A stretch of DNA of 64,000 bases from Minisyncoccota bacterium (GCA_023137185.1 JAGLPS010000006.1:683-64682); one strand, 5' to 3'; shown: positions 23,040 to 55,876, numbered from the stretch's first letter. Numbers and translations: made by a program. Notes: generated by a model not told the origin, from the sequence alone.

Positions 23040-23040
23040 T

Positions 23041-30985: not shown

Positions 30986-31112
30986 TTTTTCAAGGTTTCT
31001 TTTAAGGTCAAACCTTGAAGTTGTTGAAGATAGCTATTCCGCCTAATCAATGATATATCTAATATAGTTAGTACCTTGAAGTCCTTAATTGAAAAAACTA
31101 AAGGAGGTAAAA

Positions 31113-32651: not shown

Positions 32652-32739
32652 GACTTTTTTAATTTGTGTTTAAAAGCCGTCCCGAGCTTTATCGAGGGAC
32701 GGCTTTTATTTTTTCTTTATATGAAAAAGCGCGTTATGC

Positions 32740-33286: not shown

Positions 33287-33688
33287 TTGGGAAACCTCTA
33301 CGCAAATGATAAATTTGAGCTTGGATACCCCCAAGACTTTACCATCACCATGGAAAGTAGCGCCGGATTCCGCGCCTGTTCTTCTGATAGTAATACTTGT
33401 GTAGAGATTAGTCCCATGGACTCCCAGTGGAATTCATTTGACGACATGGTAAAAGAATGGAAAGAAACAAACCCCGAAACAGCTGATGACACAAAAGTTT
33501 TTAGAGTTTCTAGAAAAGAAGCTTTTTCTATCAAACAAGCTGAAGGAAATGATGTTGTCATAAACACCATTATAAATTCTTCTCACCCAGACATGGTTTT
33601 TATCACAATAACTAAACAAGGTGATAGCGAAATAGATTTAGATAATTTTAACAAACAAGTACTTTCTACTTTCAAGGCTGTAAAATAG
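33287..33688 (+). CDS. Hypothetical secreted or membrane-anchored protein; the N-terminal TM segment appears to lie in a different frame (possible frameshift near 33285)
   Basis: Frame-2 ORF 133 aa; an upstream frame-0 segment encodes ...KTIIVILIIVIAVVFLGIKLFKTSETTDWE with no in-frame ATG. Confidence 0.3.
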   Translation: MGNLYANDKFELGYPQDFTITMESSAGFRACSSDSNTCVEISPMDSQWNSFDDMVKEWKETNPETADDTKVFRVSRKEAFSIKQAEGNDVVINTIINSSHPDMVFITITKQGDSEIDLDNFNKQVLSTFKAVK

Positions 33689-33825
33689 ATTACTTTTCGT
33701 AAACTAACGAAGGTGCTCACATTTATTGCCACAACCCTTTTGGCAAGACGTGTATTCTTCTTTTAATCCACAGCCACTGTCCCAAATAACTAACTAACTA
33801 TTAACACTAAGTGTTGATAGTTGAA

Positions 33826-33852
33826 AAAGCCCCCCTAGGGGGGCTTTTTTTA
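33826..33852. terminator. Bidirectional intrinsic terminator aaaagcccccc-tagg-ggggcttttttt
   Basis: perfect hairpin flanked by A/T runs between convergent genes. Confidence 0.65.
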
Positions 33853-35148
33853 TTACTTAATCCGGCCTATGAAGCTCTTAAGAATTGACATGTGCTGACC
33901 TGGAATCTCTCCACCAGTACAAGCTTCTGCTGGATTAGCATCATTCGTTGTCTCCACAATAAACTGATGTCCACCATAAAAAAATCTACTTCCAATAATT
34001 ACCTTCCCATAAGGACCCGATGAGCAATCCTCGCTACATTCAACTCGCTGCTTAAAGTAAAGAGTATTTTGACAAACCTTAATATCATTTATAGTTGAGC
34101 TATATCGTGTCTTTTTAATAACAGATCTACTTCCCACATAATAATCCACACATCCATCACTTTCATTCCAGTCATTTAATCCGAACGGTATCATCTCTAA
34201 AATTTTAATTTCGGTAGAAATTACTCTCTTACTGTCAGTTTCATATCCTGAAGCACCTTTGCATCTACCTTCAACAACCTCATTAACAGCATCCCATCCT
34301 GTTTCCAACTTCATAATTCCAGCACCAGTTCCACCACTATTTTTATAATCAGACAAAACTGCTTTTATCACTCCGCGATAACCTCCTTGGGATGCTACTG
34401 AAGGCTGTTTCGGAGTTTGCGTTTGTGTTTTCGCCTGTACTGGTGGTTCGTCAGGTTCTTCAAGTTCTTTCTGTACTTCTTGGTTTTTTAAAGCTTCCAA
34501 TCTATCAAGCCTTCTTTGTTCTGCCCTGGCTTTTAATTGCTCCCGATATGCATTAGCTTGTTCTTGTCTAGCAATCAAAGCGTCAATTTCACTACCAGCA
34601 TCTTTTAGTTCTCCTCTCATTCGAGCAATCTCATCAATCTCAGCTTTGTGTCTGGCAAGTTCAAATAAATCTACATTATCTCTAGACCCCTTCAGCATCT
34701 CCCAAAATTTCAAGTCTGATTCAGACATACCATCACCCGAAGCCGCGCCTACAACATTGTCTTTTACTCCAAGAATGTTCATGACATGCCCGATGCCTTC
34801 TCCAATCTTACCAGCAGTTCCAAGCACTGTTCCCAAAGAAAGACCCACTCCTTCTTTCAAAAGATCTGATGAATAGGACCGCAGACCTTCTCTTTCAATA
34901 TCTTTTGACACTTGAAGTAATCTTAATGACTCTTGCACAGCAAGATCTCCTGATTTGCCTAAATTTGGAGCTTGTTTTGTGAGATACTGAACTTGTTCTT
35001 GAATCCCGTCAACTATTCTATTTGTCTGAACTTTGTCATATATAACTTCTCCTCCTTTAGCAACAGAAAGTGCGAGTGCAAGCCAGCTAATTGCCAACAA
35101 AGTTCCCGCCACAACCGCTCCACTTTGATTAGATTTGTTTCTTTTCAT
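33853..35148 (-). CDS. Secreted/membrane-anchored protein with coiled-coil centre and Cys-rich C-terminal domain
   Basis: 431 aa; N-terminal hydrophobic helix, Q/E/R-rich coiled coil, about 9 Cys in the C-terminal 170 aa. Confidence 0.5.
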   Translation of the reverse strand: MKRNKSNQSGAVVAGTLLAISWLALALSVAKGGEVIYDKVQTNRIVDGIQEQVQYLTKQAPNLGKSGDLAVQESLRLLQVSKDIEREGLRSYSSDLLKEGVGLSLGTVLGTAGKIGEGIGHVMNILGVKDNVVGAASGDGMSESDLKFWEMLKGSRDNVDLFELARHKAEIDEIARMRGELKDAGSEIDALIARQEQANAYREQLKARAEQRRLDRLEALKNQEVQKELEEPDEPPVQAKTQTQTPKQPSVASQGGYRGVIKAVLSDYKNSGGTGAGIMKLETGWDAVNEVVEGRCKGASGYETDSKRVISTEIKILEMIPFGLNDWNESDGCVDYYVGSRSVIKKTRYSSTINDIKVCQNTLYFKQRVECSEDCSSGPYGKVIIGSRFFYGGHQFIVETTNDANPAEACTGGEIPGQHMSILKSFIGRIK

Positions 35149-35150
35149 AT

Positions 35151-35678
35151 TTATTGAACTTTTATTGGAAAGGTTTGTATATATATAACTTCATCGCCTT
35201 CTACGGCAACTTTTATTTGCTCGTTGAAATCATAGACTTTGGCATTTTCCATGAGAAGTTCCGGTACAGAAACAACTGTACTTGGATCCGCTCCAATTAC
35301 TTTTTTAACTTGTTCAAAAGTCATTCCTTCTTTAAATTTATCTGGAGAAATTGGAAAAGGATCGGCTTCGTCAATAAATGAGATGTCCTGATCATTGGAA
35401 AATTCACCATCTATAAAAGAGAAAGACCGTCCATGTCTCTCATAACTCAATGCCTCATATCTTGCTGTTTTGTATTCTTCATCAACAATCATCTCTCCGA
35501 AGACAATGGTGTAACTCGTAGGGTTACCAAAATCTTTAATCAACACATCTGTGTCGTTAGAAAAAAGAAAAGATAAGAAATAAGAAGACCAGTTAAATGT
35601 CATGTAGACAAGCAATGCCAGTAAAAAAAGCTTCCATTTTTTCGTTTCTTTTATTTTGTTTAAAATATACATAAGCAA
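35151..35678 (-). CDS. Membrane-anchored small protein (N-terminal TM, extracytoplasmic domain)
   Basis: 175 aa; stop 3 nt upstream of the next gene's start. Confidence 0.45.
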   Translation of the reverse strand: MLMYILNKIKETKKWKLFLLALLVYMTFNWSSYFLSFLFSNDTDVLIKDFGNPTSYTIVFGEMIVDEEYKTARYEALSYERHGRSFSFIDGEFSNDQDISFIDEADPFPISPDKFKEGMTFEQVKKVIGADPSTVVSVPELLMENAKVYDFNEQIKVAVEGDEVIYIQTFPIKVQ

Positions 35679-35794
35679 ATCAAAATTAACTTATTAAAAC
35701 TACTAATATTATACCAAAACTTAAGAGGTTCGAACACGAGGAAAAGTCCTGTTCGGGGTAAAACAAAATACCGCTAGTTATAGCGATATTTTAG

Positions 35795-35842
35795 GTTGGC
35801 TCCCCCAACTGGATGAGTTCAGAACTTTGGATTGGGGGAAGA
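35795..35842. repeat. Repeat R-beta copy 3 (ggttggctcccccaactggatgagttcagaactttggattggggg)
   Basis: matches 32868-32918. Confidence 0.55.
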
Positions 35843-35916
35843 TAAAATTGGAAATGAGGAGATTAGATTTTGTTTTATCAAACCTGTTTTGAGCAAACTC
35901 TTCTTGTAACAAACTC

Positions 35917-35960
35917 GCAACATACAATTTGGCTCCCCCGGTAGGATTCGGCTACAAGTT
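35917..35960 (-). repeat. R-alpha copy 2 fused to a 23-nt remnant of the tRNA-Asn 3' end including CCA (cgaatcctaccgggggagccaaa in minus orientation): att-like scar
   Basis: 18 nt identical to the T-arm/acceptor 3' strand of the tRNA at 36097-36168. Confidence 0.55.
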
Positions 35961-36096
35961 TTTGCTCGCCGTCGCTCGCAAAACTTTCAGCCCACCCCTC
36001 GCGGTTTTGTCTGCTGACAAAACATCGCTGCGGTCTTCAAATCTTCCCCGCGCGCAAAGTAGTTTGCGCGCTCGGACTCGCACTCGCAGACTCGTG

Positions 36097-36168
36097 CTCC
36101 CCCGGTAGGATTCGAACCTACGACCAATCGCTTAACAGGCGAGTGCTCTACCACTGAGCTACAGGGGA
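36097..36168 (-). tRNA. tRNA-Asn (anticodon GTT)
   Basis: 72 nt; acceptor tcccctg/cggggga (one GU), D-arm gctc-agtggta-gagc, anticodon loop ctGTTaa, T-arm gtagg-ttcgaat-cctac; CCA not encoded. Confidence 0.85.
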
Positions 36169-36343
36169 ATGTATTTTTTACAAACACATTTATCCAAAAA
36201 TGTCCTACCTACAAACAAGCAAGCAAACAGGCAAGTTGGATAATAACGATATATTAGCAAAAAATAGTTTATCCGCAATCTTTACTCCTAAACTCCCCTC
36301 TCCCAACAAAGCAAAATGTGTTAATAAAACAGATCACTCTGCC

Positions 36344-36373
36344 AATACCCCGCGGCGAAGCCGCGGGGTATTT
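36344..36373. terminator. Hairpin aataccccgcggc-gaa-gccgcggggtatt, 3' of the protease gene
   Basis: 13-bp stem; a closely related 20-bp version occurs at 47700-47745. Confidence 0.5.
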
Positions 36374-36412
36374 CGGCCACCCAATAATCTAGAAATTTGT
36401 CCAGAGGAACCT

Positions 36413-37624
36413 TTACTGTGTTGCCGCGTACGCGTTTACCAAGCCCCATCCAAAGAGATTGTCAAAACCGCTCGCGCCCAAATCAGTAGCGGTGTCTTGA
36501 AGTTTGTTTTTTACTTCCTCGGGATCCCACTTAGAGTTTCCATTTGTGTCATAAGCACCCGGGGCAGTCTCCAAAACAAGAGCGGCGGCGCCCGCAACAT
36601 GCGGAGCTGCCATAGATGTGCCACTTAACGTTTTGTACCCCTTTCTTTTATAGGTGGAGTAGATACTTACACCGGGCGCGGCAATATCAATTTCGGGTCC
36701 GCGGGAAGAAAATGAGGCAATGTTGTTGTTTGAGTCTGTTGCTGAAACAGCTATCGCTTCGGAATAAGCGGCAGGATAAAGAACTGCTCCTCCCGAATTT
36801 CCAGCCGCAGCCACAACGACAATTCCGGCATCATACGCGCGGATAACGGCATCGTGGAAAGACTGCACGTTTGACCCCGTGCCAAGACTCATATTTATTA
36901 CGTCAAGATTGCTGTTGATGGCAAAATCTATACCCTCAATGATGTCAGAGAGATATCCAGAACCGCGCGAGTTAAGCACTTTGATAGCGTAAAGGTCAAT
37001 ATCCGGACCTACACCAACAACACCGATATTATTTTGCAAAGCGGCAATGGTGCCCGCGACGTGAGATCCGTGCCCGTTGTCATCTTCAGCGCTTTTTCTC
37101 GTCCTGATGGCGTTGTATTGCCCCTTTATATTTTCTTTAAGGTCAGGATGATAAAGATTTATACCAGTATCAATAACACCCACTTTGATAGGATTTCCTG
37201 TATTGCCTTCTGGCCAGACAAGCTCGGCGTCAACACGGTCAATTCCCCACGGCAGTATTTGTGATTGAACAGGAGCAGATGGAAGGATAGGCCTTCTGCG
37301 GGTATATCGTTCTAATTGAGAAGGAAGGTCAAGCGCGTAGACAATAACATCATCGTCTATTCGTTTGACACGGATGTCTCTTTCAAGTGTCCGTAGTTCC
37401 GCGGATGTTAAATTCTCCACAACGTCTGCTTGAAAAACACCTCGCAACCGCTTTATCCTATTTGACCGCAAGGTCTCGCTTAATGCCTCGCGTTCCGCGA
37501 CAGACACGCTTTCAGTGTAAACAATGATTTTTCTTCCCGACTCATACGAAGCGGAAGAAATAATCGGTAAAAGCCCGACAGAAACAAGGGCGATAACAAA
37601 AAGTGAAAGATAATTTATTTTCAT
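36413..37624 (-). CDS. Secreted subtilisin-like serine protease (peptidase S8)
   Basis: 403 aa; signal peptide; catalytic D (VIDTGI), H (HGSHVAGTIAA) and S (GTSMAAPHVAGAAAL) motifs. Confidence 0.85.
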   Translation of the reverse strand: MKINYLSLFVIALVSVGLLPIISSASYESGRKIIVYTESVSVAEREALSETLRSNRIKRLRGVFQADVVENLTSAELRTLERDIRVKRIDDDVIVYALDLPSQLERYTRRRPILPSAPVQSQILPWGIDRVDAELVWPEGNTGNPIKVGVIDTGINLYHPDLKENIKGQYNAIRTRKSAEDDNGHGSHVAGTIAALQNNIGVVGVGPDIDLYAIKVLNSRGSGYLSDIIEGIDFAINSNLDVINMSLGTGSNVQSFHDAVIRAYDAGIVVVAAAGNSGGAVLYPAAYSEAIAVSATDSNNNIASFSSRGPEIDIAAPGVSIYSTYKRKGYKTLSGTSMAAPHVAGAAALVLETAPGAYDTNGNSKWDPEEVKNKLQDTATDLGASGFDNLFGWGLVNAYAATQ

Positions 37625-37730: not shown

Positions 37731-37779
37731 AACTTGGGAGCTCCAACTTGGAAGCCGAGCTTCCAAGTGTGGTGTAATT
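37731..37779 (+). repeat. P1 repeat family copy 4
   Basis: aacttgggagctccaacttggaagccgagcttccaagtgtggtgtaat. Confidence 0.6.
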
Positions 37780-41773: not shown

Positions 41774-41922
41774 ACTTGGAAGCCGTAACTTGGAAGCTAA
41801 CTTGGAAGCTCGGCTTCCAAATAACGGCTTCCAAATAAGAGCCTTAAAATGTGGTGTAATATGTTTTTAACTTGGAAGCCGAGCTTCCAAGTCTGGTGTA
41901 GAGCTTCCAAGTGTGGTGTAAT
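41774..41922 (+). repeat. P1 repeat family copies 5a/5b (two tandem units, about 150 nt)
   Basis: cacttggaagccgtaacttggaagctaacttggaagctcggcttccaa...aaaatgtggtgtaat...cttggaagccgagcttccaag...agcttccaagtgtggtgtaat. Confidence 0.6.
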
Positions 41923-44562: not shown

Positions 44563-45795
44563 ATGGGAAAAAAGAGCCTTTCAACAGAAAGCTACAAAGG
44601 AGTTCGGGATTTTTATCCGGAAGATATGTTTATAGAAAAATACATCTTTGGAAAAATACGGGAAACCGTGGAGAATTTTGGCTATGTTGAATATGGCGCT
44701 TCCCCTCTTGAAGAAAGTGAGTTGTACCGCCAAAAATCCGGGGAAGAAATTGTTAATGAGCAGACATATTCCTTTAAGGACCGCGGGGACAGAGACGTAA
44801 CCTTGCGACCCGAAATGACCCCTACAACCGCCCGTATGGTCGCAAAAAAAAGACGAGAGCTTGCCTTCCCTTTGCGATGGTATTCAATCACGAATATGTT
44901 CCGCTACGAGAGGCCTCAACGGGGGCGGCTTCGTGAACATTTTCAGCTTAATGTTGACCTATTCGGCGTTGAAGGAATAGAGGCGGAAATAGAAACAATA
45001 ACGCTTGCCTCAAAAATTCTAAAAGATTTTGGTTTAAAAGAAGAAAATTTTGAGATTCAAATTAATTCAAGAAAGCTTCTTGAAAAAGCTTACGAACCTA
45101 TATTGAAGAACAAGGAGCTATTTCCTGTAATGCTTCGCCTTTTGGATAAAAAAGAAAAAATGGGAGTTGATAAATTTGAGTTGGAATGGAAAAAACTCTT
45201 TAAAGAGCCATTTGAAGAAACAAAAAACTATGAATGTCCAGAGCTAAAAAGAATTTTGGAAATTCTCGACAAGCGAGGCATTAAGACAAAACTTAATCCC
45301 TATTTAGTGCGAGGTTTTGACTACTATACTGATATTGTTTTTGAGGTGTTTGACACTAACCCAGAAAATCGCCGTTCTCTTTTCGGCGGAGGCCGTTATG
45401 ACGAGCTGCTTTCTCTTTTCGGTGAGGAAAATATCCCTGCGGTTGGGTTTGGAATGGGAGACGTTACCCTTAAAAACACGCTGGAAACATATGACCTCCT
45501 ACCGCAATATGCTTCTTCTGTTGATATATATCTCTGCATTGTAGAAAAAGAATACACAGAAGCCGCGGACACGCTTGCCTCATCTCTTCGTGAAAAAGGG
45601 CTTAACGTGGCCGTCAATTATACATATCGCAAAATCGGAGACCAGATAAAAAATGCGAACAAAGAGGGAGCTCCTTATGTTGTATGCGTCGGGAAAAAAG
45701 AAGCGGAAACTCTCCGTTTTGAACTAAAGGAACTCTCCACCGGAAAAATAGAGGAACTCTCCACGGAAAAAATTCCCGATGCGATACAAAAATGA
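44563..45795 (+). CDS. hisS: Histidine--tRNA ligase
   Basis: 410 aa; class II aaRS motifs, GVRDFYPED, RPEMTPTTARMV, anticodon-binding C-terminal domain. Confidence 0.9.
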   Translation: MGKKSLSTESYKGVRDFYPEDMFIEKYIFGKIRETVENFGYVEYGASPLEESELYRQKSGEEIVNEQTYSFKDRGDRDVTLRPEMTPTTARMVAKKRRELAFPLRWYSITNMFRYERPQRGRLREHFQLNVDLFGVEGIEAEIETITLASKILKDFGLKEENFEIQINSRKLLEKAYEPILKNKELFPVMLRLLDKKEKMGVDKFELEWKKLFKEPFEETKNYECPELKRILEILDKRGIKTKLNPYLVRGFDYYTDIVFEVFDTNPENRRSLFGGGRYDELLSLFGEENIPAVGFGMGDVTLKNTLETYDLLPQYASSVDIYLCIVEKEYTEAADTLASSLREKGLNVAVNYTYRKIGDQIKNANKEGAPYVVCVGKKEAETLRFELKELSTGKIEELSTEKIPDAIQK

Positions 45796-45822
45796 GTCCC
45801 GTAGTAGAATTTTAGCTCGATT

Positions 45823-46101
45823 ATGTTCTACATTTATGTGTTAAAGAGTATGGAAAGTAATGAACTCTATGTGGGTTACACTTCCAACTTAAAACAAAGA
45901 TTGGTAGAACATAATCAAGGATTAAATCTTTCAACCAAACGATATATGCCTTGGGAAATCATTTACTACGAGGCGTGTTTAAACAAAAAAGATGCGATCG
46001 GACGAGAAAATTATTTAAAAACAACACAAGGTGGCAGGATGTTGAAACGTAGGTTGAAAGAATTTTTTTATGAAGAAAAGTCGAAAGATTTAATAAGCTA
46101 A
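45823..46101 (+). CDS. GIY-YIG nuclease family protein
   Basis: 92 aa; YIYVLKS...LYVGYTSNLKQRLVEHN. Confidence 0.7.
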   Translation: MFYIYVLKSMESNELYVGYTSNLKQRLVEHNQGLNLSTKRYMPWEIIYYEACLNKKDAIGRENYLKTTQGGRMLKRRLKEFFYEEKSKDLIS

Positions 46102-46115
46102 AATTTCACTACAGG

Positions 46116-46691
46116 ATGAGAAAAATAGTCTTTGATATCGAAACCAGTAATATATTTCAGGATGTCGGAACAAATAACCCGGCGGATTTGTCTTTGTCTC
46201 TCCTTGCCATACACGATTCAGAGACAGACACTTACTCATCATTTGTTGAAGAAGAACTTTCAGAATTGTGGCCAATTTTAGAAAAAGCCGATGTGCTTAT
46301 CGGATACAATTCCGACCATTTTGATATCCCTCTTTTGAATAAATATTATTCAGGCGATCTAACAAAAATAAAAAGCCTCGACATTTTGGGAGAAATTAGA
46401 AAATCAATTGGAAAAAGAGTGCGGCTAGACCAAGTTGCTCAAGGAACATTAGGTACGCGAAAAAGCGGAAACGGATTGGAAGCGCTTGAATGGTGGAAAA
46501 AAGGAGAAATTGATAAAGTCCGCTCGTATTGTGTTAACGACGTAAAAATAACTAAGGAGTTACACGAATACGCCTTAAAAAACGGGAAGCTCCTGTACAA
46601 GGAAGGTCCCGCGCTTGTGGAAATCAAGCTTGACACATCCAATTGGGAAGAAAAAAAAGAGGGTTCTCTCCCCCAAAGTCTCCCGTTCTAG
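46116..46691 (+). CDS. DEDDh 3'-5' exonuclease (DnaQ/RNase T-like)
   Basis: 191 aa; Exo I VFDIETS, Exo II YNSDHFDIPLL, Exo III YCVNDV. Confidence 0.65.
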   Translation: MRKIVFDIETSNIFQDVGTNNPADLSLSLLAIHDSETDTYSSFVEEELSELWPILEKADVLIGYNSDHFDIPLLNKYYSGDLTKIKSLDILGEIRKSIGKRVRLDQVAQGTLGTRKSGNGLEALEWWKKGEIDKVRSYCVNDVKITKELHEYALKNGKLLYKEGPALVEIKLDTSNWEEKKEGSLPQSLPF

Positions 46692-46754
46692 AATACTAAC
46701 CTTACAACAAACACCCATACCTGTTTTGACATAGAGTATTTTATCGTTTATATA

Positions 46755-46862
46755 CTCGGAAGCTCTTGGAAGCGGAGCTTCCAAGAGCTTCCGAGTAACA
46801 AGTAAAAACATATTACACCACATTTTGAGGCTCCCATTTGGAAGCCGAGCTTCCAAGTTGGC
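46755..46862 (-). repeat. P1 repeat family copy 6, including a perfect 19+3+19 palindrome ctcggaagctcttggaagc-gga-gcttccaagagcttccgag
   Basis: attacaccacatttt...tttggaagccgagcttccaag. Confidence 0.6.
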
Positions 46863-46974
46863 GAAGATTGTTAAACTCGCGTAAAAAAATTTGACAAAAA
46901 AGAATACCTATGCCAATCTTGTGGAAGATAAAAGATAATCTGGCTCTTTAAAACCATTAAAAAGGAGAGTTGCG

Positions 46975-47421
46975 ATGGATACTGTAATTGATAATTTGGA
47001 TACTTTAAATCTGGATTTAAAAGATGAGAAAACGGTAAAATACCTGATTGGACGCTGTAAGTCAGTGGAAGATTTCAAGAAGCTGAATGATCAAACTTTA
47101 CCTGGTTCAGAGGCCAAGAAAAAGGTCAGGAAGGCGTGGGGTGAGTTCATTCTGCCTGAAATTGAAAAACGAATCTCAAATTGCAAGTCAGTGGAGAGCC
47201 TTGAGAGGCTAGAAAGCCAAACTCCATCTGGTTCAGAAGCCCAGAAAAAAATCAGGGAGGCGCGGGAAAAGTTCATTACCATGCAAATCTCAAATTGCAA
47301 GTTGGTGGAGAATTTTAAGAGGCTGATTGATCAAACTTCACCTGGTTCAGAAGCCTGGAGAAAAGTCAGGGAGGCGTGGCAAACATTCGTAAAATCTGAA
47401 ATTCAGGAAACTATCGTTTAG
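46975..47421 (+). CDS. Repeat protein paralog A (three ~37-aa repeats ISNCKSVEDFKKL-DQT-PGSEA-KKVR-AW-EFI-PEIEKR)
   Basis: 148 aa; conserved ~90-nt upstream region with TTGACA and aaaaggagag SD; conserved terminator 47441-47477. Confidence 0.5.
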   Translation: MDTVIDNLDTLNLDLKDEKTVKYLIGRCKSVEDFKKLNDQTLPGSEAKKKVRKAWGEFILPEIEKRISNCKSVESLERLESQTPSGSEAQKKIREAREKFITMQISNCKLVENFKRLIDQTSPGSEAWRKVREAWQTFVKSEIQETIV

Positions 47422-47523
47422 ACTCTTAATTAAAACTTGAAAGCGGGCAAGGATGTAATTCTGCCCGCTTTTTTTGACGAAAAGATTTGATGAAAAGACC
47501 TCTCCCCACCTAAATCTTTCCCA

Positions 47524-47571
47524 TCCTTTCTTTCTCTAACCTAATCTCTAATTCGCGCGAATTAGAGATTA
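47524..47571. repeat. Near-perfect 48-nt palindrome ctaatctctaattcgcgcgaattagagattag with flanks, tail of the paralog cassette (copy also at 54468-54505)
   Basis: seen directly. Confidence 0.6.
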
Positions 47572-47699
47572 GATTAGAGAGTTGCTATCAATGTTTTTTG
47601 TTATTGGAAGCGGCCAGAATACCCCGTCCGCTTGCGGCGGGGATGAATGGTCGCGCAGTAATCTGGGCGAGCGAAGCTCGCTCCTATCTAACAAAGTTT

Positions 47700-47745
47700 C
47701 CCCGATACCGTCCACGAATACCCCGCGGCAAGCCGCGGGGTATTC
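47700..47745. repeat. 20-bp-stem hairpin cgtccacgaataccccgcggc-aa-gccgcggggtattcgtggacg
   Basis: related to 36344-36373. Confidence 0.55.
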
Positions 47746-47760
47746 GTGGACGGCAAACTT

Positions 47761-47798
47761 TTATATCGAGGTTTATATCGAGGTTGAACCTCGATAAT
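47761..47798. repeat. P2 palindrome family copy c (tatatcgaggtt x2 - g - aacctcgata)
   Basis: core atcgaggtt-N-aacctcgat shared with 15630-15664, 16999-17043 and 54553-54599. Confidence 0.55.
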
Positions 47799-47868
47799 AG
47801 GACAGCTCCCTCTTCCGCATAGGTCTATATTTTGACAAATAGGATATATCCGCGAATTGGTTTGCTTG

Positions 47869-48696
47869 TCAAAATAATGTAACAATAATCACTAGCGCCG
47901 CGAGCATAATTCGGTAAACGATAAAAGGTATCAGAGAGTGCGTTTTTAGAAAACGAATTAGAAAACGAATCGCGCACAAACCGCTCACAAGCGCGACAAA
48001 AAATCCGACAAGACTGGGAACAAACGCTGAAGTGGCAAATAATACGTCCGAAAATTTAATTACTTTGTACAAACCGGCAGCGGTAATTATCGGAAAAGAA
48101 AGAAGGAAGCTAAAACGAACCGCTTCTTCTCGTGAGAGTCCCGTAATGAGCCCACCAGAAATCGTTGAACCTGAACGAGAAACACCGGGAATAAGAGCAA
48201 GCGCCTGATAGAAACCGATGACAAACCCTTTTTTGTTTGAGAGAGATTCTTTTTCGGTACTTTTTTTCTCGGCATACCCAAAAAGCACACTTCCTAAAAT
48301 CAAAGCAGTGGCAACCAAAAGCGGGTTGCGAAAAGAAGTTTCAATAACCGAATTAAACGCAAACCCAAGCACTGCCGCCGGAATAGTACCGATAGCTATG
48401 GCGGTTATAAGAGTCTTTTCTTGAGGTACAACTGACTCTGGACGTGTAATAAGGCGAAAAGCTGAAGCTGCCATACGAATAATATCTTTTCTGAAATATA
48501 AAAATACAGCAAGAACGGTCGCGAGATGTAAAAAAATGTCGTATGTAAGGCCATTTGGAATATTCATACCTAACACATCGCGCACAAGTATAAGATGCCC
48601 TGTTGAAGAGACAGGGAGAAATTCCGTAAATCCTTGAATAACGCCAAGAAAAGCCGCTTGTAGTATCTCCATACAAATTTTAGCATACCATATCAA
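47869..48696 (-). CDS. uppP: Undecaprenyl-diphosphate phosphatase
   Basis: 275 aa; QGFTEFLPVSSTGHLIL and PGVSRSGSTI motifs. Confidence 0.9.
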   Translation of the reverse strand: MIWYAKICMEILQAAFLGVIQGFTEFLPVSSTGHLILVRDVLGMNIPNGLTYDIFLHLATVLAVFLYFRKDIIRMAASAFRLITRPESVVPQEKTLITAIAIGTIPAAVLGFAFNSVIETSFRNPLLVATALILGSVLFGYAEKKSTEKESLSNKKGFVIGFYQALALIPGVSRSGSTISGGLITGLSREEAVRFSFLLSFPIITAAGLYKVIKFSDVLFATSAFVPSLVGFFVALVSGLCAIRFLIRFLKTHSLIPFIVYRIMLAALVIIVTLF

Positions 48697-48781
48697 AGGC
48701 TAGCGAGGGTCTTTTGGCTATGCTAAAATGGGAAACCTGACGTATTGTTCAAAATTATTATTAACATAAATTTCTAACAGA

Positions 48782-49558
48782 ATGGATAATAAATTCACTA
48801 TACCTGGCGCAATAGTAATCGCGGGAGTATTGATTGCCGGAGCTATTTTACTCACTACCAATAAGGGCACTGAAAGTTCTTCAATTACTACGACAAAAGA
48901 AACAGACGAGACTGCCATTGCTGTTCGCGAGGTAAATTCACAGGACCACATATTGGGAAACCCCTCCGCAGACGCGATAGTTATTGAATTTTCTGATACG
49001 GAATGTCCATTCTGTGTGCAATTCCACACTACAATGCATACCGTAATGGATAATCTCGGAAAAGATGGAAAAGTTGCATGGGTATACCGTCATTTTCCTA
49101 TTCCACAATTGCATCCAAACGCGCCGAAAGAAGCAGAAGCGCTTGAGTGCGCCGCAGAACTTGGAGGAAATGAAAAATTCTGGGAATATACCGACACAAT
49201 TTATCGCATTACTCCGTCAAACAACGGACTCGACCTCGCGGAACTTCCCAAAATTGCCAAGACGATTGGTTTAGATACCACTCAATTTCAAGACTGCCTT
49301 GAAAGCGGAAAACACGCCGAAAGAGTACAGAGGGATTATCAGGATGCTATGACTGCGGGCGGAACAGGAAGTCCATTTTCAGTAATCATCTTGAAACAAA
49401 AACTCTCCCCCGCGTCCAAAAACACACTTGACTCAGTCGCCTCACAGCTTCCGAACAAGCTTCTTATCATCTCCTCCGACCAAAAGAGAATCTCAATAAG
49501 CGGCGCGCTTCCATACGAAATTTTTAGTGAGATTCTTAATGTAGCGCTCACTCGTTAG
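48782..49558 (+). CDS. Membrane-anchored DsbA-like thiol-disulfide oxidoreductase
   Basis: 258 aa; N-terminal TM; thioredoxin CPFC active site in DTECPFCVQFH. Confidence 0.7.
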   Translation: MDNKFTIPGAIVIAGVLIAGAILLTTNKGTESSSITTTKETDETAIAVREVNSQDHILGNPSADAIVIEFSDTECPFCVQFHTTMHTVMDNLGKDGKVAWVYRHFPIPQLHPNAPKEAEALECAAELGGNEKFWEYTDTIYRITPSNNGLDLAELPKIAKTIGLDTTQFQDCLESGKHAERVQRDYQDAMTAGGTGSPFSVIILKQKLSPASKNTLDSVASQLPNKLLIISSDQKRISISGALPYEIFSEILNVALTR

Positions 49559-52500
49559 TATTCTTTAAGAATATCCTCTTCAAAATCAATTATTCCTTGC
49601 AGGTTCTTTTTGTAGTGGCTTATGTCAGGAAATTCAAGACACATAATTTTTTTGTATACCGCGCTGATAAGCGCTTTTGTCCTTTGGAACAATTCATCAT
49701 CTATTTCAAGAGAAAGTTCTTGAAACGTATTGCGTGACGGTTCCAAAAATTCAATAACTCCATTCCGCACTGAATAGTTGTGAAAATCCCGCGATTTCTC
49801 AACAAGAATTTTATAGAACGCAAGCTGGCGAGCGTATCCTCGTAGACGCAATTTTTCATAAACCGTTGTTCCTTTCCAATCGGAGTAGACCCGCCCTGTT
49901 TTAAAGTCGTGCACAATTATTTCTTTATTGGAAACAATCATTTTGTCTATTTTTCCGGAAAGCGGCACGTCATTTTCAACTACTCCTTGCCGTCTGAAAT
50001 TCACTTCTATAAGATGGTCGGAGTGAAATTTTTCTTTTTTGCGCGCGTAAAAAAGTGTAAGCGCTTTTTCGCCTCGTTGCTGTTCAATTCTAAAATCACG
50101 CGCGGAGAGACGTTCAGCAGAAAGAGCTTTCGTAAAAAAAGTGATGAATTTTTTAAGAGTGGGAATTTTTCCGTTTTTCCTTAAACTCCGATACAGTATT
50201 TCAACAGCTTTATGCATCGCCGTACCAAAAGCATTAGATGGAGTTTTCGCCTGCGGGAAACGCAACAGGTTTTGTTCAAGGAAAAATTGAGGGCCGCCAT
50301 GAAAGATATTAAGATAGTTATTCAAATGAGTGACACTCATCGTGTAATTTTCCAAAAGCGGCTTCAAAAGAGCTTTCTCGTCTTTGACAAAGACAGGCTG
50401 ATAAAATCTTTCTGGAGGACTAATTTGCCCTCCTTGTATCGCGCGTATGGAGGAGACGGAAAATGAAGAAGAAAGGAAACCAAGCGGAAACGTTTCTCTT
50501 CCGCGACTGTCGAAAGTGTGAGAGCAGAGATAGAGCATTCTTTTCGCGCGCGTCATCGCGACATAAAACAGGCGGATATAATCGTCATCGCTATCGGGAG
50601 ACGGAACTATTGAGAGATTTTTAGGAAAAGAAATCTTAAGTGCTCTTTCTTTTCCCGCCCATACCGACTCAAGGCAGTGAAGAACAAATACCGCTTCAAA
50701 CTCAAGCCCCTTTGCCTTGTGAGCAGTAAGAAGGGTAACCGCGTCTTTTCCCGTTACAAAAGGACTCTTGTCAGTAAGAATAATTCCGTTTTTCTGATGA
50801 AGGTCAACAAAAGAAATCAGGTCGTCAATTTTCAAAGGCAGTCCTTTTTTGTGTTCTCGCAGGGCGTCAATAAATACTCGGAGGCTTGAAAGGAAGACAA
50901 GATATTCAGCCCGATGTTCGGAAAACTTTTGAGAAGAAAAATAGTATTCTCTGAAAGGACTTGTAAATTTTTTTGTTTTTTTAGCCCGTAGGGGTTTTTC
51001 ATCGGCAGATTTTGGCAAAAGGGAGATATGAGAGCCAATTAGATCGTCGAGAATATATTCGAGCGGTTCTGAAAGAGAACGAACTGCGATATTAAGAAGA
51101 AACCGCGCGACTTCCTGAACTTTCGCGTTACGCGAGGCACGCATCACTTCAAGCCAGCGTTTCTCCTCTTTGTAAGCAGTAAGTGAAATTTCCCATATAG
51201 TTTCCCTTTGAATCCCCCAGAATGGGAAACTTAAAATTTCCGGAAGCAAATTATCCGCTTCTTGTATATTATTGCGTCCCACTGATGAAAGAAAGCGGGC
51301 AATGGTTATGAGCTCTTTAATATGGCGTTCCTTCAAGACATCTTGTTGGCGTTCATAGCTAACAGGAATTTTTCGGGCATATAGATACGGAGCAAGACGT
51401 TCAAGAAAAACGTGCTTCCGCCCGATAACAGCTATATTTTTAAAGGGCGTTCCTTTTGCGGAAAGACGCTGTATTTCTTCGGCAACAAATGTATACTCCT
51501 CCGCGCTTCCTTCAAATGCGGAGTACGCGATTTTTCCTTTTGCGGACGTAGAAGAAATAAGTGCTTTACTAATTGACGGAATTATATTTTCGAGCCGTTC
51601 TTCCCCTTTCTTGATAACAGAAAGGGACGCGTCAAGAATATCCGGAGTTGAACGATAATTGAGCATTAACGTAATAATACGGGGGTCGCGGACACTCCCA
51701 ATAAAACGAACAAAATTTCCCATTTCCGCTCCTTGAAATTTAAAAATTGCCTGGTCATCATCTCCTACCACCATCACATTAGGTCTTCCTTCGTTAACCG
51801 GCGCGTCAATCAAAAGAGAAAGAAGCCTCATTTGGGCATCGTTCGTATCTTGAAATTCATCTACAAGAATATACTGATATGTTTCCTGCAATTCAGAAAG
51901 AAGCGACTGATTTTTTGTAAACGCCGAGATCGTCTGGAGAAGCATATCATCAAAGTCATAGTAACCATTACAGTACATCTTTTCATTGTAATCGCGATAT
52001 ACCTCCTGCAAAGCGTAGAGTATGGGTAATGAGAGAAAGTTTTTTAGCACTCGTTTTTCCTCTTTATCCTTGCTTGTCCATGAACTTTTCCACGCGGATA
52101 GCGCTTGCGTACCGCTATGTTCCGCTTCGGCTAACGCTTTTGCAAGTGAGTGAAAAAACACATATTCATACAGAGGAACTTTTCCAAGCCCGAAATCGCG
52201 TGTCTTTTTAAAAGGAGGGATGTGTTTTTTAAGATAACTGATGTCTTTCTTAGTAATACGAGCAGAAAGATGTTTTGTTAAAAAATTATTGATTTTTTTA
52301 AAAGACTTCTCATTTTCCGAAAGTAAAACTTTAAAATCTTCCGGGGTCAAGCCTGCTTTTTTTAAATAACCAATGGCCGAATGTACCGCTGGAAGATAAA
52401 TATAACCCTGTTCGGGGTGTTCTTTTTTAATGGGGTTGTCGCGAGAAAGATTATCAAAAAGAGTTTGAAGAACTTCGCGCTGAACAATTACATCTGCCGG

Positions 52501-52980
52501 AGAAAGGTTCGCGCCATCATAAAAATATTCAGGGAAACGCTCAATTATATCCACACTAAAATTATGGAACGTATGAATCGGCACGCGATACGCGCTGTCT
52601 CCGATAAGCCCATATAAACGCTTGCGCATCGCAACAGCTCCAGAATCAGTAAAGGTAAGACAAAGCACATTTTGCGGTCGCGCGTCAGTGGAGCAAATAA
52701 TATTCGCAACCCGTAGACTTAAAAGCTCCGTCTTTCCGCTTCCAGGTCCCGCAATCACAACGACAGGTCCTTCTATTGCGTTGACTGCCTCTTTTTGAGC
52801 TTTGTTGAGAGCTAAAAATCGCTTTTTAAATTTGGTCTCAAAGGAAGAGGGCATTTGAGAGTGATTATACCTTTCGTAGACAGATTGGCATACCCCCACA
52901 CCTGTCTTGACACAGTATCTTGTCGTTTCTGTACTTGGAATCGCCAACTTGGAAGCTCGGCTTCCAAGTTGGCGATTCAA
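49555..52980 (-). CDS. UvrD/PcrA-family helicase with C-terminal PD-(D/E)xK (RecB/AddA-like) nuclease domain; true start probably about 52860 (MPSSFETKF...)
   Basis: 1141 aa; helicase motif I AGPGSGKTE, motif II VDEFQDT, and a C-terminal ...VHDFKTG...Y..QLAFYKIL nuclease-like region. Confidence 0.75.
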   Translation of the reverse strand: MNRQLGSRASKLAIPSTETTRYCVKTGVGVCQSVYERYNHSQMPSSFETKFKKRFLALNKAQKEAVNAIEGPVVVIAGPGSGKTELLSLRVANIICSTDARPQNVLCLTFTDSGAVAMRKRLYGLIGDSAYRVPIHTFHNFSVDIIERFPEYFYDGANLSPADVIVQREVLQTLFDNLSRDNPIKKEHPEQGYIYLPAVHSAIGYLKKAGLTPEDFKVLLSENEKSFKKINNFLTKHLSARITKKDISYLKKHIPPFKKTRDFGLGKVPLYEYVFFHSLAKALAEAEHSGTQALSAWKSSWTSKDKEEKRVLKNFLSLPILYALQEVYRDYNEKMYCNGYYDFDDMLLQTISAFTKNQSLLSELQETYQYILVDEFQDTNDAQMRLLSLLIDAPVNEGRPNVMVVGDDDQAIFKFQGAEMGNFVRFIGSVRDPRIITLMLNYRSTPDILDASLSVIKKGEERLENIIPSISKALISSTSAKGKIAYSAFEGSAEEYTFVAEEIQRLSAKGTPFKNIAVIGRKHVFLERLAPYLYARKIPVSYERQQDVLKERHIKELITIARFLSSVGRNNIQEADNLLPEILSFPFWGIQRETIWEISLTAYKEEKRWLEVMRASRNAKVQEVARFLLNIAVRSLSEPLEYILDDLIGSHISLLPKSADEKPLRAKKTKKFTSPFREYYFSSQKFSEHRAEYLVFLSSLRVFIDALREHKKGLPLKIDDLISFVDLHQKNGIILTDKSPFVTGKDAVTLLTAHKAKGLEFEAVFVLHCLESVWAGKERALKISFPKNLSIVPSPDSDDDYIRLFYVAMTRAKRMLYLCSHTFDSRGRETFPLGFLSSSFSVSSIRAIQGGQISPPERFYQPVFVKDEKALLKPLLENYTMSVTHLNNYLNIFHGGPQFFLEQNLLRFPQAKTPSNAFGTAMHKAVEILYRSLRKNGKIPTLKKFITFFTKALSAERLSARDFRIEQQRGEKALTLFYARKKEKFHSDHLIEVNFRRQGVVENDVPLSGKIDKMIVSNKEIIVHDFKTGRVYSDWKGTTVYEKLRLRGYARQLAFYKILVEKSRDFHNYSVRNGVIEFLEPSRNTFQELSLEIDDELFQRTKALISAVYKKIMCLEFPDISHYKKNLQGIIDFEEDILKEY
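52933..52978. repeat. P1 repeat family copy 7 (extended perfect palindrome gaatcgccaacttggaagctcggcttccaagttggcgattc)
   Basis: seen directly. Confidence 0.6.
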
Positions 52981-53055
52981 GTTAAAAATTTGACAAAAAG
53001 GATATCTATGCTATTTTTGTGGAAGATAAATAATAATCAAGTCCTTTAAAAACCA

Positions 53056-53540
53056 TTGAAAAGGAGAGTCGCGATGGATACTGTAATTGGTAATTTGGAT
53101 ACTTTGAATCTGGATTTAGAAGATGAGAAAACGATAAAATACCTGATTGGACGTTGTAAGTCAGAGGAGGATTTTAGGAGACTGGATGGGCAAACTCCGT
53201 CTGGTTCAGAAGCCGAGAAAAAAGTCAGGGAGGCGTGGGATGAGTTCATTCTGCCTGAAATTGAGGAGCGAATCTCAAATTGTAAGTCAGTAGAGGATTT
53301 CAAGGAGCTAGATAGACAAACTCCATCTGGTTTAGAAGCTGAGAGAAAAGTAAGGGAGGCAAGGGAAAAGTTCTTTCTGCTTGAAATTGAAAACTGCTTG
53401 AACTTGAAAAGAAAATCTCAAATTGCAAGTCAGTGGAGGACTTTGAGAGGCTAGAAAGCCAAACTCCGCTTAATCCAGAAGCCAGGAAAAAGGTCAGGGA
53501 GGCGTGGCAAGCATTCGTAAAATCTGAAATTCAGAAAACC
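53056..53540 (+). pseudogene. Repeat protein paralog B, disrupted by a 17-nt insertion/duplication (ctgcttgaacttgaaaa) near 53394 causing a frameshift
   Basis: ORF 53056-53454 terminates early; the downstream frame encodes the conserved C-terminus ...KISNCKSVEDFERLESQTPLNPEARKKVREAWQAFVKSEIQKTIV. Confidence 0.5.
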
Positions 53541-53670
53541 ATCGTTTAGACTCTTAATTAAAACTCAAAAGCGGGCAAGGATATAATCCTGCCCGCTTTT
53601 TATAATCAGAAAACTTTGCAGGTCAAGACAAGAAAGCACTTCGTTTTGGACACTGAGTGTCCAAAAACCC

Positions 53671-53720
53671 AAATTACACCACACTTGGAAGTTGAGCTTC
53701 CAAGTTGGTCGCTTCCAAGA
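53671..53720 (-). repeat. P1 repeat family copy 8
   Basis: attacaccacacttggaagttgagcttccaagttgg. Confidence 0.55.
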
Positions 53721-53832
53721 GCGTAATTGATTTCATAAGAAATGCTTAATTGAAACACAATTTAACTAAATATAAATTGAAATTGAACTCACGGAAAAAA
53801 GGTTTGACAAAAAGGATATCTATGCTATTTTT

Positions 53833-54351
53833 GTGGAAGATAAAGAACACTCAAGCTCTTTAAAACTACTAAAAAGGAGAGTCGCGATGGATATTGTAGT
53901 TGGGAATTTGGATACTTTGAATCTGGATTTAAAAGATGAGAAAACGATAAAATACCTGATTGGGCGTTGCAAGTCAGTAGAAGATTTCAAGAGGCTGGAT
54001 AGTCAAATTCCGCTTTGGTCAGAAGCCAGAAAAAAAGTCAGGGAGGCGCGGGATGAGTTTGTTAGCAAATTGCCTGAAATTGAAGAACGAATCTCAAATT
54101 GCAAGTCAGTGGAGGACTTTGAGAGACTAGAAAGCCAAACTCAATTTGGTTCAGAAGCTGAGAAAAAGGTCAGGGAGGCGTGGAATAAGTTCATTCTGCC
54201 TGAAATTGAAAAGAAAATCTTAAATTGCAAGTCAGTGGAAGATTTCAGGAGGCTGGATAGCCAAACTCCACTTTGGTTAGAAGCTTGGAGAAAAGTCAGG
54301 GAGGCGTGGCGAACATTCGTAAAATCTGAAATTCAGAAAACCATCGTTTAG
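53833..54351 (+). CDS. Repeat protein paralog C (four repeats)
   Basis: 172 aa; the same promoter/RBS, terminator (54371-54407) and palindromic tail as paralog A. Confidence 0.5.
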   Translation: MEDKEHSSSLKLLKRRVAMDIVVGNLDTLNLDLKDEKTIKYLIGRCKSVEDFKRLDSQIPLWSEARKKVREARDEFVSKLPEIEERISNCKSVEDFERLESQTQFGSEAEKKVREAWNKFILPEIEKKILNCKSVEDFRRLDSQTPLWLEAWRKVREAWRTFVKSEIQKTIV

Positions 54352-54552
54352 ACTCTTAACTAAAACTTGAAAGCGGGCAAGGATGTAATCCTGCCCGCTT
54401 TTTTTTGACGAAAAGATTTGATGAAAAGACCTCTCCGTCCAAATCTTTTCTACCCTTTCTTTCTCTAATCTCTAATTCGCGCGAATAGGAGAATAGATTA
54501 GAGAGTTGCTATCAATGTTTTTTTGTTGTTAGTTAAGTGTTATAAGTTTTTT

Positions 54553-54599
54553 TATTATCGAGTATTATCGAGGTTCAACCTCGATAATACTCGATAATA
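54553..54599. repeat. P2 palindrome family copy d (47-nt near-perfect palindrome tattatcgagtattatcgaggtt-c-aacctcgataatactcgataata)
   Basis: seen directly, between convergent genes. Confidence 0.55.
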
Positions 54600-54652
54600 C
54601 AATAATTAGTTAGATGGATAAGGTTTTTGCATTCCTAATTTCTTTCTAATTT

Positions 54653-55876
54653 CTAATAATAATTTCGCAAACGGTTGATTTTTTTGTGCTGGCGGATTTT
54701 TTCGTGTGCTTTTGCTTCGATTTGTCTAATACGCTCTCTAGTAACGCCAAACTCCTTTCCAACTTCTTCTAGTGTGTGCGTTACGCCATCTGAAAGTCCG
54801 TGCCGCATTTCAAGAATTCTGCGTTCTTTTTGCGGAAGTTGGTCTAAAATTTCTTGTACCTGATCGGCAACAATGCGACGGGAAGTTTCTTCTTCCGGAG
54901 AAAGGAGGTGGTCATCAGCCACAAAGTCTCCGAGAACGGATTTCCCTTCGTCCCCTTCGTCCCCTACCGGACTTTCAAGAGAAACAGTATTCTGGTCAAT
55001 TTTTTCAATATTATAAATTTTTTCAACGTCAAGGTTCATTTCAGTCGCAATTTCTTCCGGAAGCGGGTCGCGTCCCAACTCCTGTGAGAGTCTCCGTACC
55101 ACCTGTTTATACTTGGCGATAGTCTCAACCATATGAACCGGTACGCGAATTGTCCGCGATTGGTCGGCAAGCGCTCGTGTAATCGCCTGTCGAATCCACC
55201 ATGTCGCGTAAGTGCTAAATTTATATCCTTTTGTCCAGTCAAACTTGTCTACCGCTTTAAAAAGGCCGAGGTTTCCTTCCTGAATCAAATCAAGGAGTGT
55301 CAGGTCAGGACTGCGTCCGACATATTTTTTCGCGATTGAAACGACAAGACGAAGATTTGAACGCGCGAGCAAATTTTTCGCTTCTTCATCTCCTGCCTCA
55401 ATACGTTTCGCAAGTTCCTTCTCCTCGGAACCGGAAATGAGCGGATATTGCCCGATTTCTTTTAGATACATTTGAATAGAGTCAAAATTTCCACTGTCTT
55501 GTCCCGCCCCGTACTTTTTTGATTCAGTCTCCTTTTCAGAATCAAGAAGATTTCCCCCTTCAAGCACGTCAATACCAGTTGTATTGAGCTTGTCGTACAA
55601 TTCGTCGAGAAGACTAACATTATTCTCAACAGTCGGAAATTCTTTGAGAATTTCATCGTATGTTACAAAACCTCGCGCTCGCCCTTTAGCAATAATTAAA
55701 TTTACCTTCTCATCAAGAGAAAGTTTTTTTTCAAGAGTTTTAGCAGAAATTCGCACTACTTTTTTGCGTTTAATCACAGGACGAGTTTTTGTCCTCGACT
55801 GTTTTGATACGACGCTCTTTTTCACCTTTGAAGACTTACGCGCGATTTTTTTCTTTTTTTTCTTCTGTGTTGACAT
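54653..55876 (-). CDS. rpoD: RNA polymerase sigma factor (sigma-70 family, primary)
   Basis: 407 aa; regions 2.x ([22 protein letters not shown]), 3 and 4.2 HTH; basic N-terminus. Confidence 0.9.

Follow-up and report, generated by a model that had tools for sequence, protein, structure and literature searches.

Tandem helical-repeat proteins such as the TPR, Sel1-like, HAT and HEAT/ARM families are built from units of 34-47 aa that each contribute a pair of helices, and these families usually act as protein-binding scaffolds. In a 64,000-nucleotide stretch of a Minisyncoccota genome (GCA_023137185.1, JAGLPS010000006.1:683-64682; hereafter the window), our analysis identifies three paralogous plus-strand genes, termed copies A, B and C, that encode proteins resembling these families in their 42-aa period with two helices per unit (DSSP), in a conserved framework of small or hydrophobic residues with variable surface positions, and in a unit number that varies among paralogs. 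They differ from the described families in lacking any profile match or fold superposition (template modelling (TM) scores of 0.2-0.3), in a unit made of a short (10-aa) helix and a long (23-25-aa) helix that runs into the next unit, and in being very small proteins encoded by several stand-alone genes. A paired-helix unit of 42 aa marks the general helical-repeat class and not any single family and, to our knowledge, the motif C-K-S-x-E-D-F...K-V-x-E-A-W matches no TPR, Sel1-like, HAT or HEAT/ARM consensus. The sequence family is new, but the class to which it belongs, the helical tandem-repeat proteins, is a familiar one. On balance we lean towards reading the family as an orphan, lineage-restricted family of cytosolic helical-repeat binding scaffolds of which copy B has recently been truncated. 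That the family is real, coding, maintained and all-helical is near-certain; the scaffold function is put forward tentatively.

The window belongs to a metagenome-assembled genome (MAG) of a cold-seep 'Candidatus Pacebacteria' (Patescibacteria; locus tags KAR00_); the samples were taken at the South China Sea cold seep known as Site-F (PRJNA707313; PMC9357000). From this genome we examined the 64-kb window and a further 16 kb, and compared them with a 27-kb contig from an independent per-sample assembly (L001) and with contigs from three further samples (L002-L004). The three genes were delineated from a listing of open reading frames (ORFs), direct reading and a three-way DNA alignment, which give the following cassettes:

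46891-46974, plus strand: promoter and 5' untranslated region (UTR) of copy A, from sequence reading and the alignment
46975-47421, plus strand: coding sequence of copy A, 148 aa; a 24-aa N-terminal segment, then three units of 42, 38 and 42 aa
47440-47476, plus strand: intrinsic terminator of A, AAAGCGGGCA...TGCCCGCTTTTTTT, in a region 97% identical to that of C
52990-53073, plus strand: promoter and 5' UTR of copy B, TTGACA-16 nt-TG-TATTTT and Shine-Dalgarno site; a 10/12 match, with TG
53074-53454, plus strand: coding sequence of copy B as now read, 126 aa; N-terminal segment, two intact units and 20 out-of-frame residues
53567-53601, plus strand: intrinsic terminator of B, from the sequence and the alignment
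53804-53886, plus strand: promoter and 5' UTR of copy C, TTGACA-16 nt-TG-TATTTT and Shine-Dalgarno site
53887-54351, plus strand: coding sequence of copy C, 154 aa; three units of 44, 42 and 42 aa
54370-54406, plus strand: intrinsic terminator of C, from the sequence and the alignment

Nucleotide identity among A, B and C is 82-84% in the coding sequence, 82-86% in the 95 nt that precede the ATG and 84-97% in the 62 nt past the stop codon, which contain the intrinsic terminator; the original prediction, made from the sequence of the window, had put all three regions above 80%, and our alignment agrees. Every copy has a TTGACA -35 element, a 16-17-nt spacer that ends in TG, and a -10 hexamer, which is TATTTT in B and C and CAATCT in A (-35 at 46891-46896 and extended -10, TGC plus CAATCT, at 46911-46919). 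The sequence AAGATAAA immediately 3' of the -10 hexamer is kept in all three copies, as is the Shine-Dalgarno sequence AAAAGGAGAG 5 nt ahead of the ATG (GGAGAG at 46964-46969 in A), and each gene ends in a GC-rich hairpin followed by a T-run (AAAGCGGGCA...TGCCCGCTTTTT). The conserved Shine-Dalgarno site and ATG indicate that B starts at 53074 and C at 53887 and not, as first proposed, at 53056 and 53833, where the in-frame TTG and GTG fall within the 5' UTR or promoter. The 5' UTR folds no better than shuffled sequence and shows weak anti-Shine-Dalgarno pairing only. Judged by these signals, each gene is an autonomous cassette that is probably strongly expressed, and the proteins are probably abundant because the expression signals lie near consensus. 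The cassettes have the same GC content as their surroundings, and no compositional anomaly pointing to recent transfer was seen.

Copies A and B flank the uppP gene, a DsbA-like gene and a UvrD/PD-(D/E)XK gene. The statement that two copies bracket the UvrD gene is accurate as far as that gene lies between A and B, and incomplete in that uppP and the DsbA-like gene lie there too. The association looks incidental, as copy D (described below) and the distant homologues sit in unrelated neighborhoods; gene neighborhood differs at every family locus examined. The longest ORF of the UvrD-like gene itself (TTG at 52980) crosses a short intergenic palindrome considered below; in the public annotation the gene begins at 52854 (1099 aa), so that it and copy B share a divergent intergenic region of 220 nt.

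Tandem Repeats Finder gives a repeat period of 126 nt, or 42 aa, in the three genes, with 114 nt for one unit of A (its 38-aa unit), and a hidden Markov model (HMM) of the units finds three units each in A, C and a repaired B; the 37-aa length proposed earlier is wrong by both methods. A conserved N-terminal segment of about 24 aa, MDTVIGNLDTLNLDLKDEKTIKYL, precedes the units, and the family C-terminus reads FVKSEIQKTIV. The unit consensus is I-x-N-C-K-S-x-E-D-F-x-x-L-x-x-Q-T-[variable 4-5 aa]-E-A-x-K-K-V-x-E-A-W-x-x-F. Over 16 close units I1, C4, E8, L13, Q16, A24, K27 and F35 are invariant, K5, S6, F10, V28 and A31 are nearly so, and the most variable columns are the loop at 20-21 together with 2, 15, 25, 33 and 34. 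There is one Cys per unit, kept in 25 of 27 units when distant ones are included, and the N-terminus is acidic, with no hydrophobic stretch resembling a signal peptide on inspection; the one Cys per repeat and the lack of a signal peptide had been noted in the original prediction.

The structure prediction that it had also proposed was carried out on copy C with AlphaFold2 in two runs, using alignments of four and eight sequences. Both models are all-alpha, with a predicted local distance difference test (pLDDT) score of 84.5 and 86.0 and a predicted TM score (pTM) of 0.58 and 0.56, respectively, and both give the same helix map (H31-40, H46-70, H75-84, H90-112, H117-126 and H132-153). In the modeled unit a 10-residue helix follows C-K-S, and a 5-residue loop leads to a helix of 23-25 residues that enters the next I-S-N-C. 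Confidence is lowest over the first 17 residues (pLDDT 60-77 for the N-terminal motif). Residues I1, C4, V7, F10 and L13 are spaced i/i+3, and this spacing suggests that the Cys may lie in a buried hydrophobic stripe; the adjoining S-x-E-D is presumably a helix N-cap, which it resembles.

Neither sequence nor structure comparison assigns these proteins to a described family. Pfam, NCBIfam, PHROGs and PADLOC give nothing at curated thresholds: a Pfam scan of A, C and six homologues finds no repeat family at E <= 1-10, NCBIfam likewise has none, the PADLOC anti-phage defence models do not match, and the best PHROG match (E = 1.7e-4) covers 40 residues only and is to a family without an assigned function. 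TIGR04452, alpha-xenorhabdolysin B, Nif11 and IMP2_N appear as sub-threshold noise and were rejected; TIGR04452, a Leptospira lipoprotein family, scores 21.8 bits against a cutoff of 28 over about 30 residues around 'SNCKS', and our proteins have no h-region and an acidic N-terminus. Searches of PDB sequences with full-length and unit profiles return nothing better than E = 0.03. Foldseek against PDB (both models) and BFVD returns nothing at E < 0.1, the best PDB value being 0.55-1.1, and the top non-significant neighbors are 14-3-3, HAT and TPR-like folds. Our literature searches found no earlier description of the family. The original description of a multi-copy gene cassette of promoter, coding sequence, terminator and, in two copies, a tail stands, and the cassette matches no known family.

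The family extends beyond the three members recognized originally, which are indeed the members in the window. The same population has at least three further copies:

copy D: contig L005, same genome, in an unrelated neighborhood; P0002, 111 aa, two units
copy E: contig L002, directly upstream of B; four units
copy F: contig L009; at least five units, with an in-frame TAG where E has CAG

Unit number thus ranges from two (D) through three (A, B and C) and four (E) to at least five (F), and protein size from 111 to at least 175 aa. Of the six copies, B is interrupted by a frameshift and F by a nonsense codon. The D cassette has the same intergenic palindrome, promoter and terminator. The 3' flank of E matches the B-C spacer at 100% over 295 nt, and L002 then enters the B promoter within a 44-nt stretch common to B and C, so that the E-B-C order of this contig either reflects a tandem array in that strain or arises from ambiguity in the assembly. 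Just upstream of D, at L005 7244-7702, lies a gene whose 152-aa product has a signal peptide with LNLNLGNC-KA at its end; this sequence locally resembles the LNLDL...GRCKS of the family, probably by coincidence.

Nei-Gojobori dN/dS is 0.33-0.50 for all pairs (0.37-0.50 for A against B, C and D), with bootstrap 95% intervals that exclude 1. Paralog dS is 0.31-0.49, and the duplications are accordingly old; the cassette had been called 'duplicating', and the divergence of the paralogs does not fit such ongoing activity. Units cluster by position (first, middle or last) and not by gene, and therefore the multi-unit architecture predates the duplications. The family would have grown by duplication of whole cassettes, and unit number would have changed by gain or loss of middle 126-nt units.

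A search for the repeat elsewhere, which the original prediction had suggested, finds few relatives. The unit-profile HMM, run exhaustively over 1.84 billion representative proteins, gives 11 matches at E <= 1e-3, of which seven besides D look true (P0003-P0008 and P0010), so that relatives number fewer than ten. Six of the seven are 70-167 aa long, one of them (P0004, 70 aa) being copy F ended by its TAG, and the remaining one has 400 aa and about eight units. The N-terminal pattern [FL]-x-L-D-L-x-D-E-K-x-L-x-x-L-x-G-x-C is present in five of the seven and absent from P0005 and P0007; in distant relatives, with 27-43% amino acid identity, both the N-terminal segment and the unit pattern are retained. 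All six relatives that were looked up are singleton clusters. No relative was found in 185,579 GTDB species genomes or in JGI metagenomes with family peptide patterns (two scans each), and tblastn against phages and plasmids gives no homologue. In a divergent organism from the same cold-seep samples (contig L010), three members occur in tight tandem. There, a 106-aa member and the 120-aa P0007 lie within positions 1193-1930, where P0005 also begins (at 1899); each has its own AAGGAGG site, with no promoters or terminators between them. The upstream region has AGATAAATAATAA in common with the 5' UTR of copy B.

If the modeled helices are taken at face value, the units would stack into a soluble, all-alpha helical-repeat array in which the conserved positions, including the single Cys of each unit, would make up the hydrophobic core. 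Partner choice would then lie with the hypervariable loop and a few surface positions, so that different paralogs would bind different partners. A cytosolic location is suggested because the N-terminus has no signal peptide, and the scaffold role by analogy, since helical-repeat arrays usually serve in this way. Several observations weigh against this interpretation. No significant sequence or fold match and no conserved neighbor backs the scaffold function. The equation of the variable loop with a binding surface is weak because loops often vary through lack of constraint, and the packing of the units is uncertain because pTM is only 0.56-0.58. Members range in pI from 5.0 to 9.7 with no common charge signature, a spread that hints at no common ligand class. 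The retention of the Cys in 25 of 27 units leaves room for a chemical role (redox, metal or persulfide) in place of packing. Finally, a tail that follows A and C is more conserved than the coding sequence, and the scaffold model leaves it unexplained.

In a more far-reaching version, which we regard as unlikely, this new helical-repeat fold would supply a small repertoire of diversified recognition modules to an episymbiotic cold-seep Patescibacterium, with host-cell or phage proteins as targets; breadth would come from duplication of palindrome-flanked cassettes, gain and loss of 42-aa units and the knocking out of copies, and the ladder of Cys residues could add thiol, persulfide or metal chemistry. 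No sign of a diversity-generating retroelement was seen, in that no reverse transcriptase occurs among the genes scanned and the unit differences are not obviously adenine-specific, although no formal test was made.

The Cys may instead be the functional residue, with each protein a thiol ladder that carries or buffers persulfide sulfur, soft metal or redox equivalents in a sulfide-rich cold seep. The Cys is the best conserved residue family-wide (25 of 27 units) and stands just ahead of the helix N-cap in C-K-S, the gene dosage and strong expression signals would suit a stoichiometric carrier or buffer, and the samples come from sulfidic cold-seep material. However, the position of the Cys within the i/i+3 stripe suggests burial, there is no second conserved ligand residue (His or Cys), and no match was obtained to the rhodanese, TusA, DsrE, metallothionein or thioredoxin families. 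We consider this role improbable, and return to the scaffold interpretation, of which the recent truncation of copy B is the remaining part.

The lesion in B, recognized as a frameshifting 17-nt duplication in the original prediction, is fully supported by our analysis and comprises two features:

53377-53410, plus strand: 17-nt tandem duplication in B, CTGCTTGAAATTGAAAA / CTGCTTGAACTTGAAAA, frame-shifting
53411-53549, plus strand: stranded third unit of B, ISNCKSVEDFERLESQTPLNPEARKKVREAWQAFVKSEIQKTIV followed by a stop, intact in the -1 frame

The two 17-mers (53377-53393 and 53394-53410) are identical at 16 of 17 positions (Tandem Repeats Finder period 17, 2.0 copies, 94%), and deletion of either restores a 152-aa ORF that reaches 53549, with the third unit intact and the family C-terminus. 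The stranded unit has a dN/dS of 0.37-0.79 against other last units, within the range of those units, and because it is not clearly relaxed and carries no further lesions, the event is recent relative to paralog divergence. In a population comparison made at assembly (consensus) level over four samples, the product of B (P0001) is identical in five contigs and in the NCBI MAG: L001 is 100% identical to window positions 45074-54454 (9,381 bp, covering A, B and C), and L002-L004 carry the exact same allele. The duplication is not an assembly error, since it is identical in contigs from four samples. B has gained a 17-nt tandem duplication that is fixed, at consensus level, in the sampled population and leaves a two-unit product.

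The alternative offered from the outset, a phase-variable gene, would make B a reversible ON/OFF contingency gene, or one decoded by -1 ribosomal frameshifting, in which the duplication is regulatory and not a lesion. The family does resemble the phase-variable contingency genes of host-associated bacteria in being multi-copy with members switched off by frameshift (B) or nonsense (F), and broken copies recur in it. The downstream unit of B reads intact in the -1 frame and shows no decay, an exact deletion between the 17-mers would bring the gene back into frame, and by inspection the A-rich GAAAAGAAAATC past the duplication could permit low-level slippage. Contingency genes differ, however, in their switching tracts: Tandem Repeats Finder detects 126-nt units, the two-copy 17-mer and two-copy 7-13-nt repeats only, with no homopolymer or other simple-sequence tract, and the two 17-mers already differ at one base. 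Among the assemblies of the four samples no ON/OFF polymorphism is seen, five of five contigs carrying the OFF allele. Inspection of the zero frame of B reveals no canonical X_XXY_YYZ heptamer and no obvious downstream stimulator, and F is broken in another way, by its nonsense codon, which fits random inactivation in a redundant family. A switch is for these reasons slightly more improbable than a thiol ladder, and of the two options first named, pseudogene or phase-variable gene, the former is favored: in all likelihood B is a pseudogene, or a truncated allele, of recent origin.

Precursors of ribosomally synthesized and post-translationally modified peptides (RiPPs) are a further group of small, multi-copy proteins that deserves comparison. 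Leaders of class I lanthipeptides carry an FNLD box, which resembles the LNLDL of our family, and the precursors of prochlorosins are scattered away from their modifying enzymes. A similar organization here would make the proteins multi-core precursors, with a conserved leader followed by Cys/Ser/Thr cores. The many small paralogs with a conserved N-terminus, L-N-L-D-L and Cys, Ser and Thr in each unit do recall such systems: [FL]-x-L-D-L-x-D-E-K is conserved even in distant members, precisely where the model is least confident (pLDDT 60-77), every unit has C-K-S and T-P-x-x-S, and the paralogs combine the conserved N-terminus with hypervariable patches of 4-5 aa. P0003 has weak similarity to the Nif11 domain (E = 0.87), and a B12-binding radical-SAM enzyme (31089-32651) and a subtilase (36413-37624) are encoded 10-16 kb away. 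Against this, conservation extends over the whole protein, for which a helical, globular fold is predicted with confidence, and with only one Cys per 42 aa there is no short, unstructured core rich in Cys, Ser and Thr. The sequences contain neither a double-Gly motif nor any other cleavage motif, no LanB, LanC, LanM or SPASM enzyme adjoins any of the six loci examined, the Nif11 match lies far under threshold (10.4 bits against a cutoff of 23.8), and a five-residue motif of L, N and D easily arises by chance. A precursor function is consequently very improbable.

That the family is an artefact, either a collapsed, misassembled repeat with a spurious frameshift or non-coding DNA resembling miniature inverted-repeat transposable elements with chance open frames, has almost no probability left and is already contradicted, for although the source is metagenome-assembled, palindromes are dense around the cassettes and the E-B-C order of L002 may be an ambiguous path through the stretches of 295 and 44 nt that are identical, the 27-kb contig L001, assembled independently, matches the 9,381 bp covering A, B and C without a difference, contigs from three other samples carry the identical B allele, the copies cannot collapse into one another because they differ by 16-20%, dN/dS is significantly below 1, and homologues recognizable at the protein level, with no DNA similarity, occur in other organisms.

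Beyond their terminators, A and C carry the conserved tail:

47473-47600, plus strand: tail of A, with two copies of a 13-nt direct repeat TTTGAYGAAAAGA, a pyrimidine tract, a 32-nt perfect palindrome and a T-run
54404-54525, plus strand: tail of C, with a degenerate palindrome at 54465-54496

The two tails, predicted as some 110 nt with a palindrome in two copies, are confirmed at about 120 nt and 92% identity. The palindrome CTAATCTCTAATTCGCGCGAATTAGAGATTAG, whose chance expectation is 0, is perfect in A (47541-47572) and has three mismatches in C (54465-54496). The minimum free energy z-score of the tail is -5.7 in A and -4.0 in C. The tails thus fold strongly, but compensatory changes do not back a tail hairpin, the three mismatches of C being uncompensated. 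Rfam models on 46000-55500 give only chance miRNA-like matches on palindromes and none for the tail. There is no further copy of the tail in the window, and the palindrome has no matches in viral contigs.

A second kind of element, the one crossed by the UvrD-like ORF and shared by D, is the palindrome TTGGAAGC-N3-GCTTCCAA. It resembles repetitive extragenic palindromic (REP) sequences and bacterial interspersed mosaic elements (BIMEs) in being short, palindromic, intergenic and dispersed in both orientations, and differs in having no sequence relation to the REPs of enterobacteria. The 64 kb contain ten good copies, in both orientations and always intergenic; an eleventh match, with two mismatches, lies at 9326 inside the ORF at 9100-9543 and was left out of the count.

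4546-4564, 5525-5543, 10141-10159, 37748-37766 and 41802-41820: REP-like palindrome copies
41872-41890, 46766-46784, 46838-46856, 52949-52967 and 53685-53703: REP-like palindrome copies, continued
46766-46784 and 46838-46856, no strand assigned: the two REP-like palindromes upstream of A
52949-52967, no strand assigned: REP-like palindrome upstream of B, in the divergent intergenic region common to B and the UvrD-like gene
53651-53718, no strand assigned: composite REP-like element in the B-C spacer; GGACACTGAGTGTCC hairpin, ...ATTACACCACAC and TTGGAAGTTGAGCTTCCAA

A REP-like copy lies 30-130 nt upstream of the -35 element in every cassette (A, B, C, D in L005 and F in L009), those of D and F being at about 7800-7890 of L005 and 2310-2350 of L009. 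The element often forms part of a composite of about 60-80 nt together with ...ATTACACCACAC... and a GGACACTSAGTGTCC hairpin, and the composite of the B-C spacer recurs upstream of D. No match to the element was found in viral contigs. It may be part of the ancestral duplicated segment, and could serve as an upstream terminator or insulator, a recombination site or an operator.

Other palindromes also occur in the window. A second family, ATCGAGGTT(C/G)AACCTCGAT, is found at gene ends (15644-15662, 17012-17030, 47777-47795 and 54567-54585), often flanked by TATCGAG direct repeats, and two of its copies lie just past the A and C tails. Distinct GC-rich palindromes are in general abundant between the genes of this genome, for example 12663-12703/14109-14149, 30890-30925/32809-32844 and 47713-47750.

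Elsewhere in the window, a defence island occupies 17694-27119 on the minus strand within a restriction-modification operon. The N6_Mtase/Eco57I methyltransferase (25092-27119) and HsdS (17694-19136) are kept apart by inserted modules, namely DUF4145, a Thoeris ThsB-TIR gene (22022-22528), ThsA-Macro (21099-22025) and an AAA_15 ATPase (19143-20948). Two 41-aa ORFs (20971-21096 and 22908-23033) consist of the HsdS N-terminus fused to the methyltransferase C-terminus, and because of these fusions the methyltransferase/HsdS junction is present three times, bracketing the inserted modules. Direct repeats at 26944-27156/29019-29231 (213 nt, 88%) and 27201-27307/27725-27831 (107 nt, 91%) surround HATPase_c/DUF4325 and AAA_14/DUF4143 ATPase genes; a direct repeat pair of this kind, open in one minus-strand frame, may represent duplicated gene ends. 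The B12-binding radical-SAM gene is flanked by hairpin blocks (30890-30959/32809-32886 and 32722-32927/35797-35936), and the region 30890-37624 also encodes a 431-aa protein without a Pfam match (33853-35148) and the subtilase, a secreted S8 enzyme; no obvious small precursor gene was seen near the radical-SAM enzyme in this region.

The family alone opens no long-standing question. It offers a clean example of lineage-specific protein invention, and its compact proteins would suit structural work and screens for binding partners. In the tiny genomes of Patescibacteria, the presence of four to six paralogs of one small protein, predicted to be highly expressed, suggests that the family is important for the lifestyle of these organisms.

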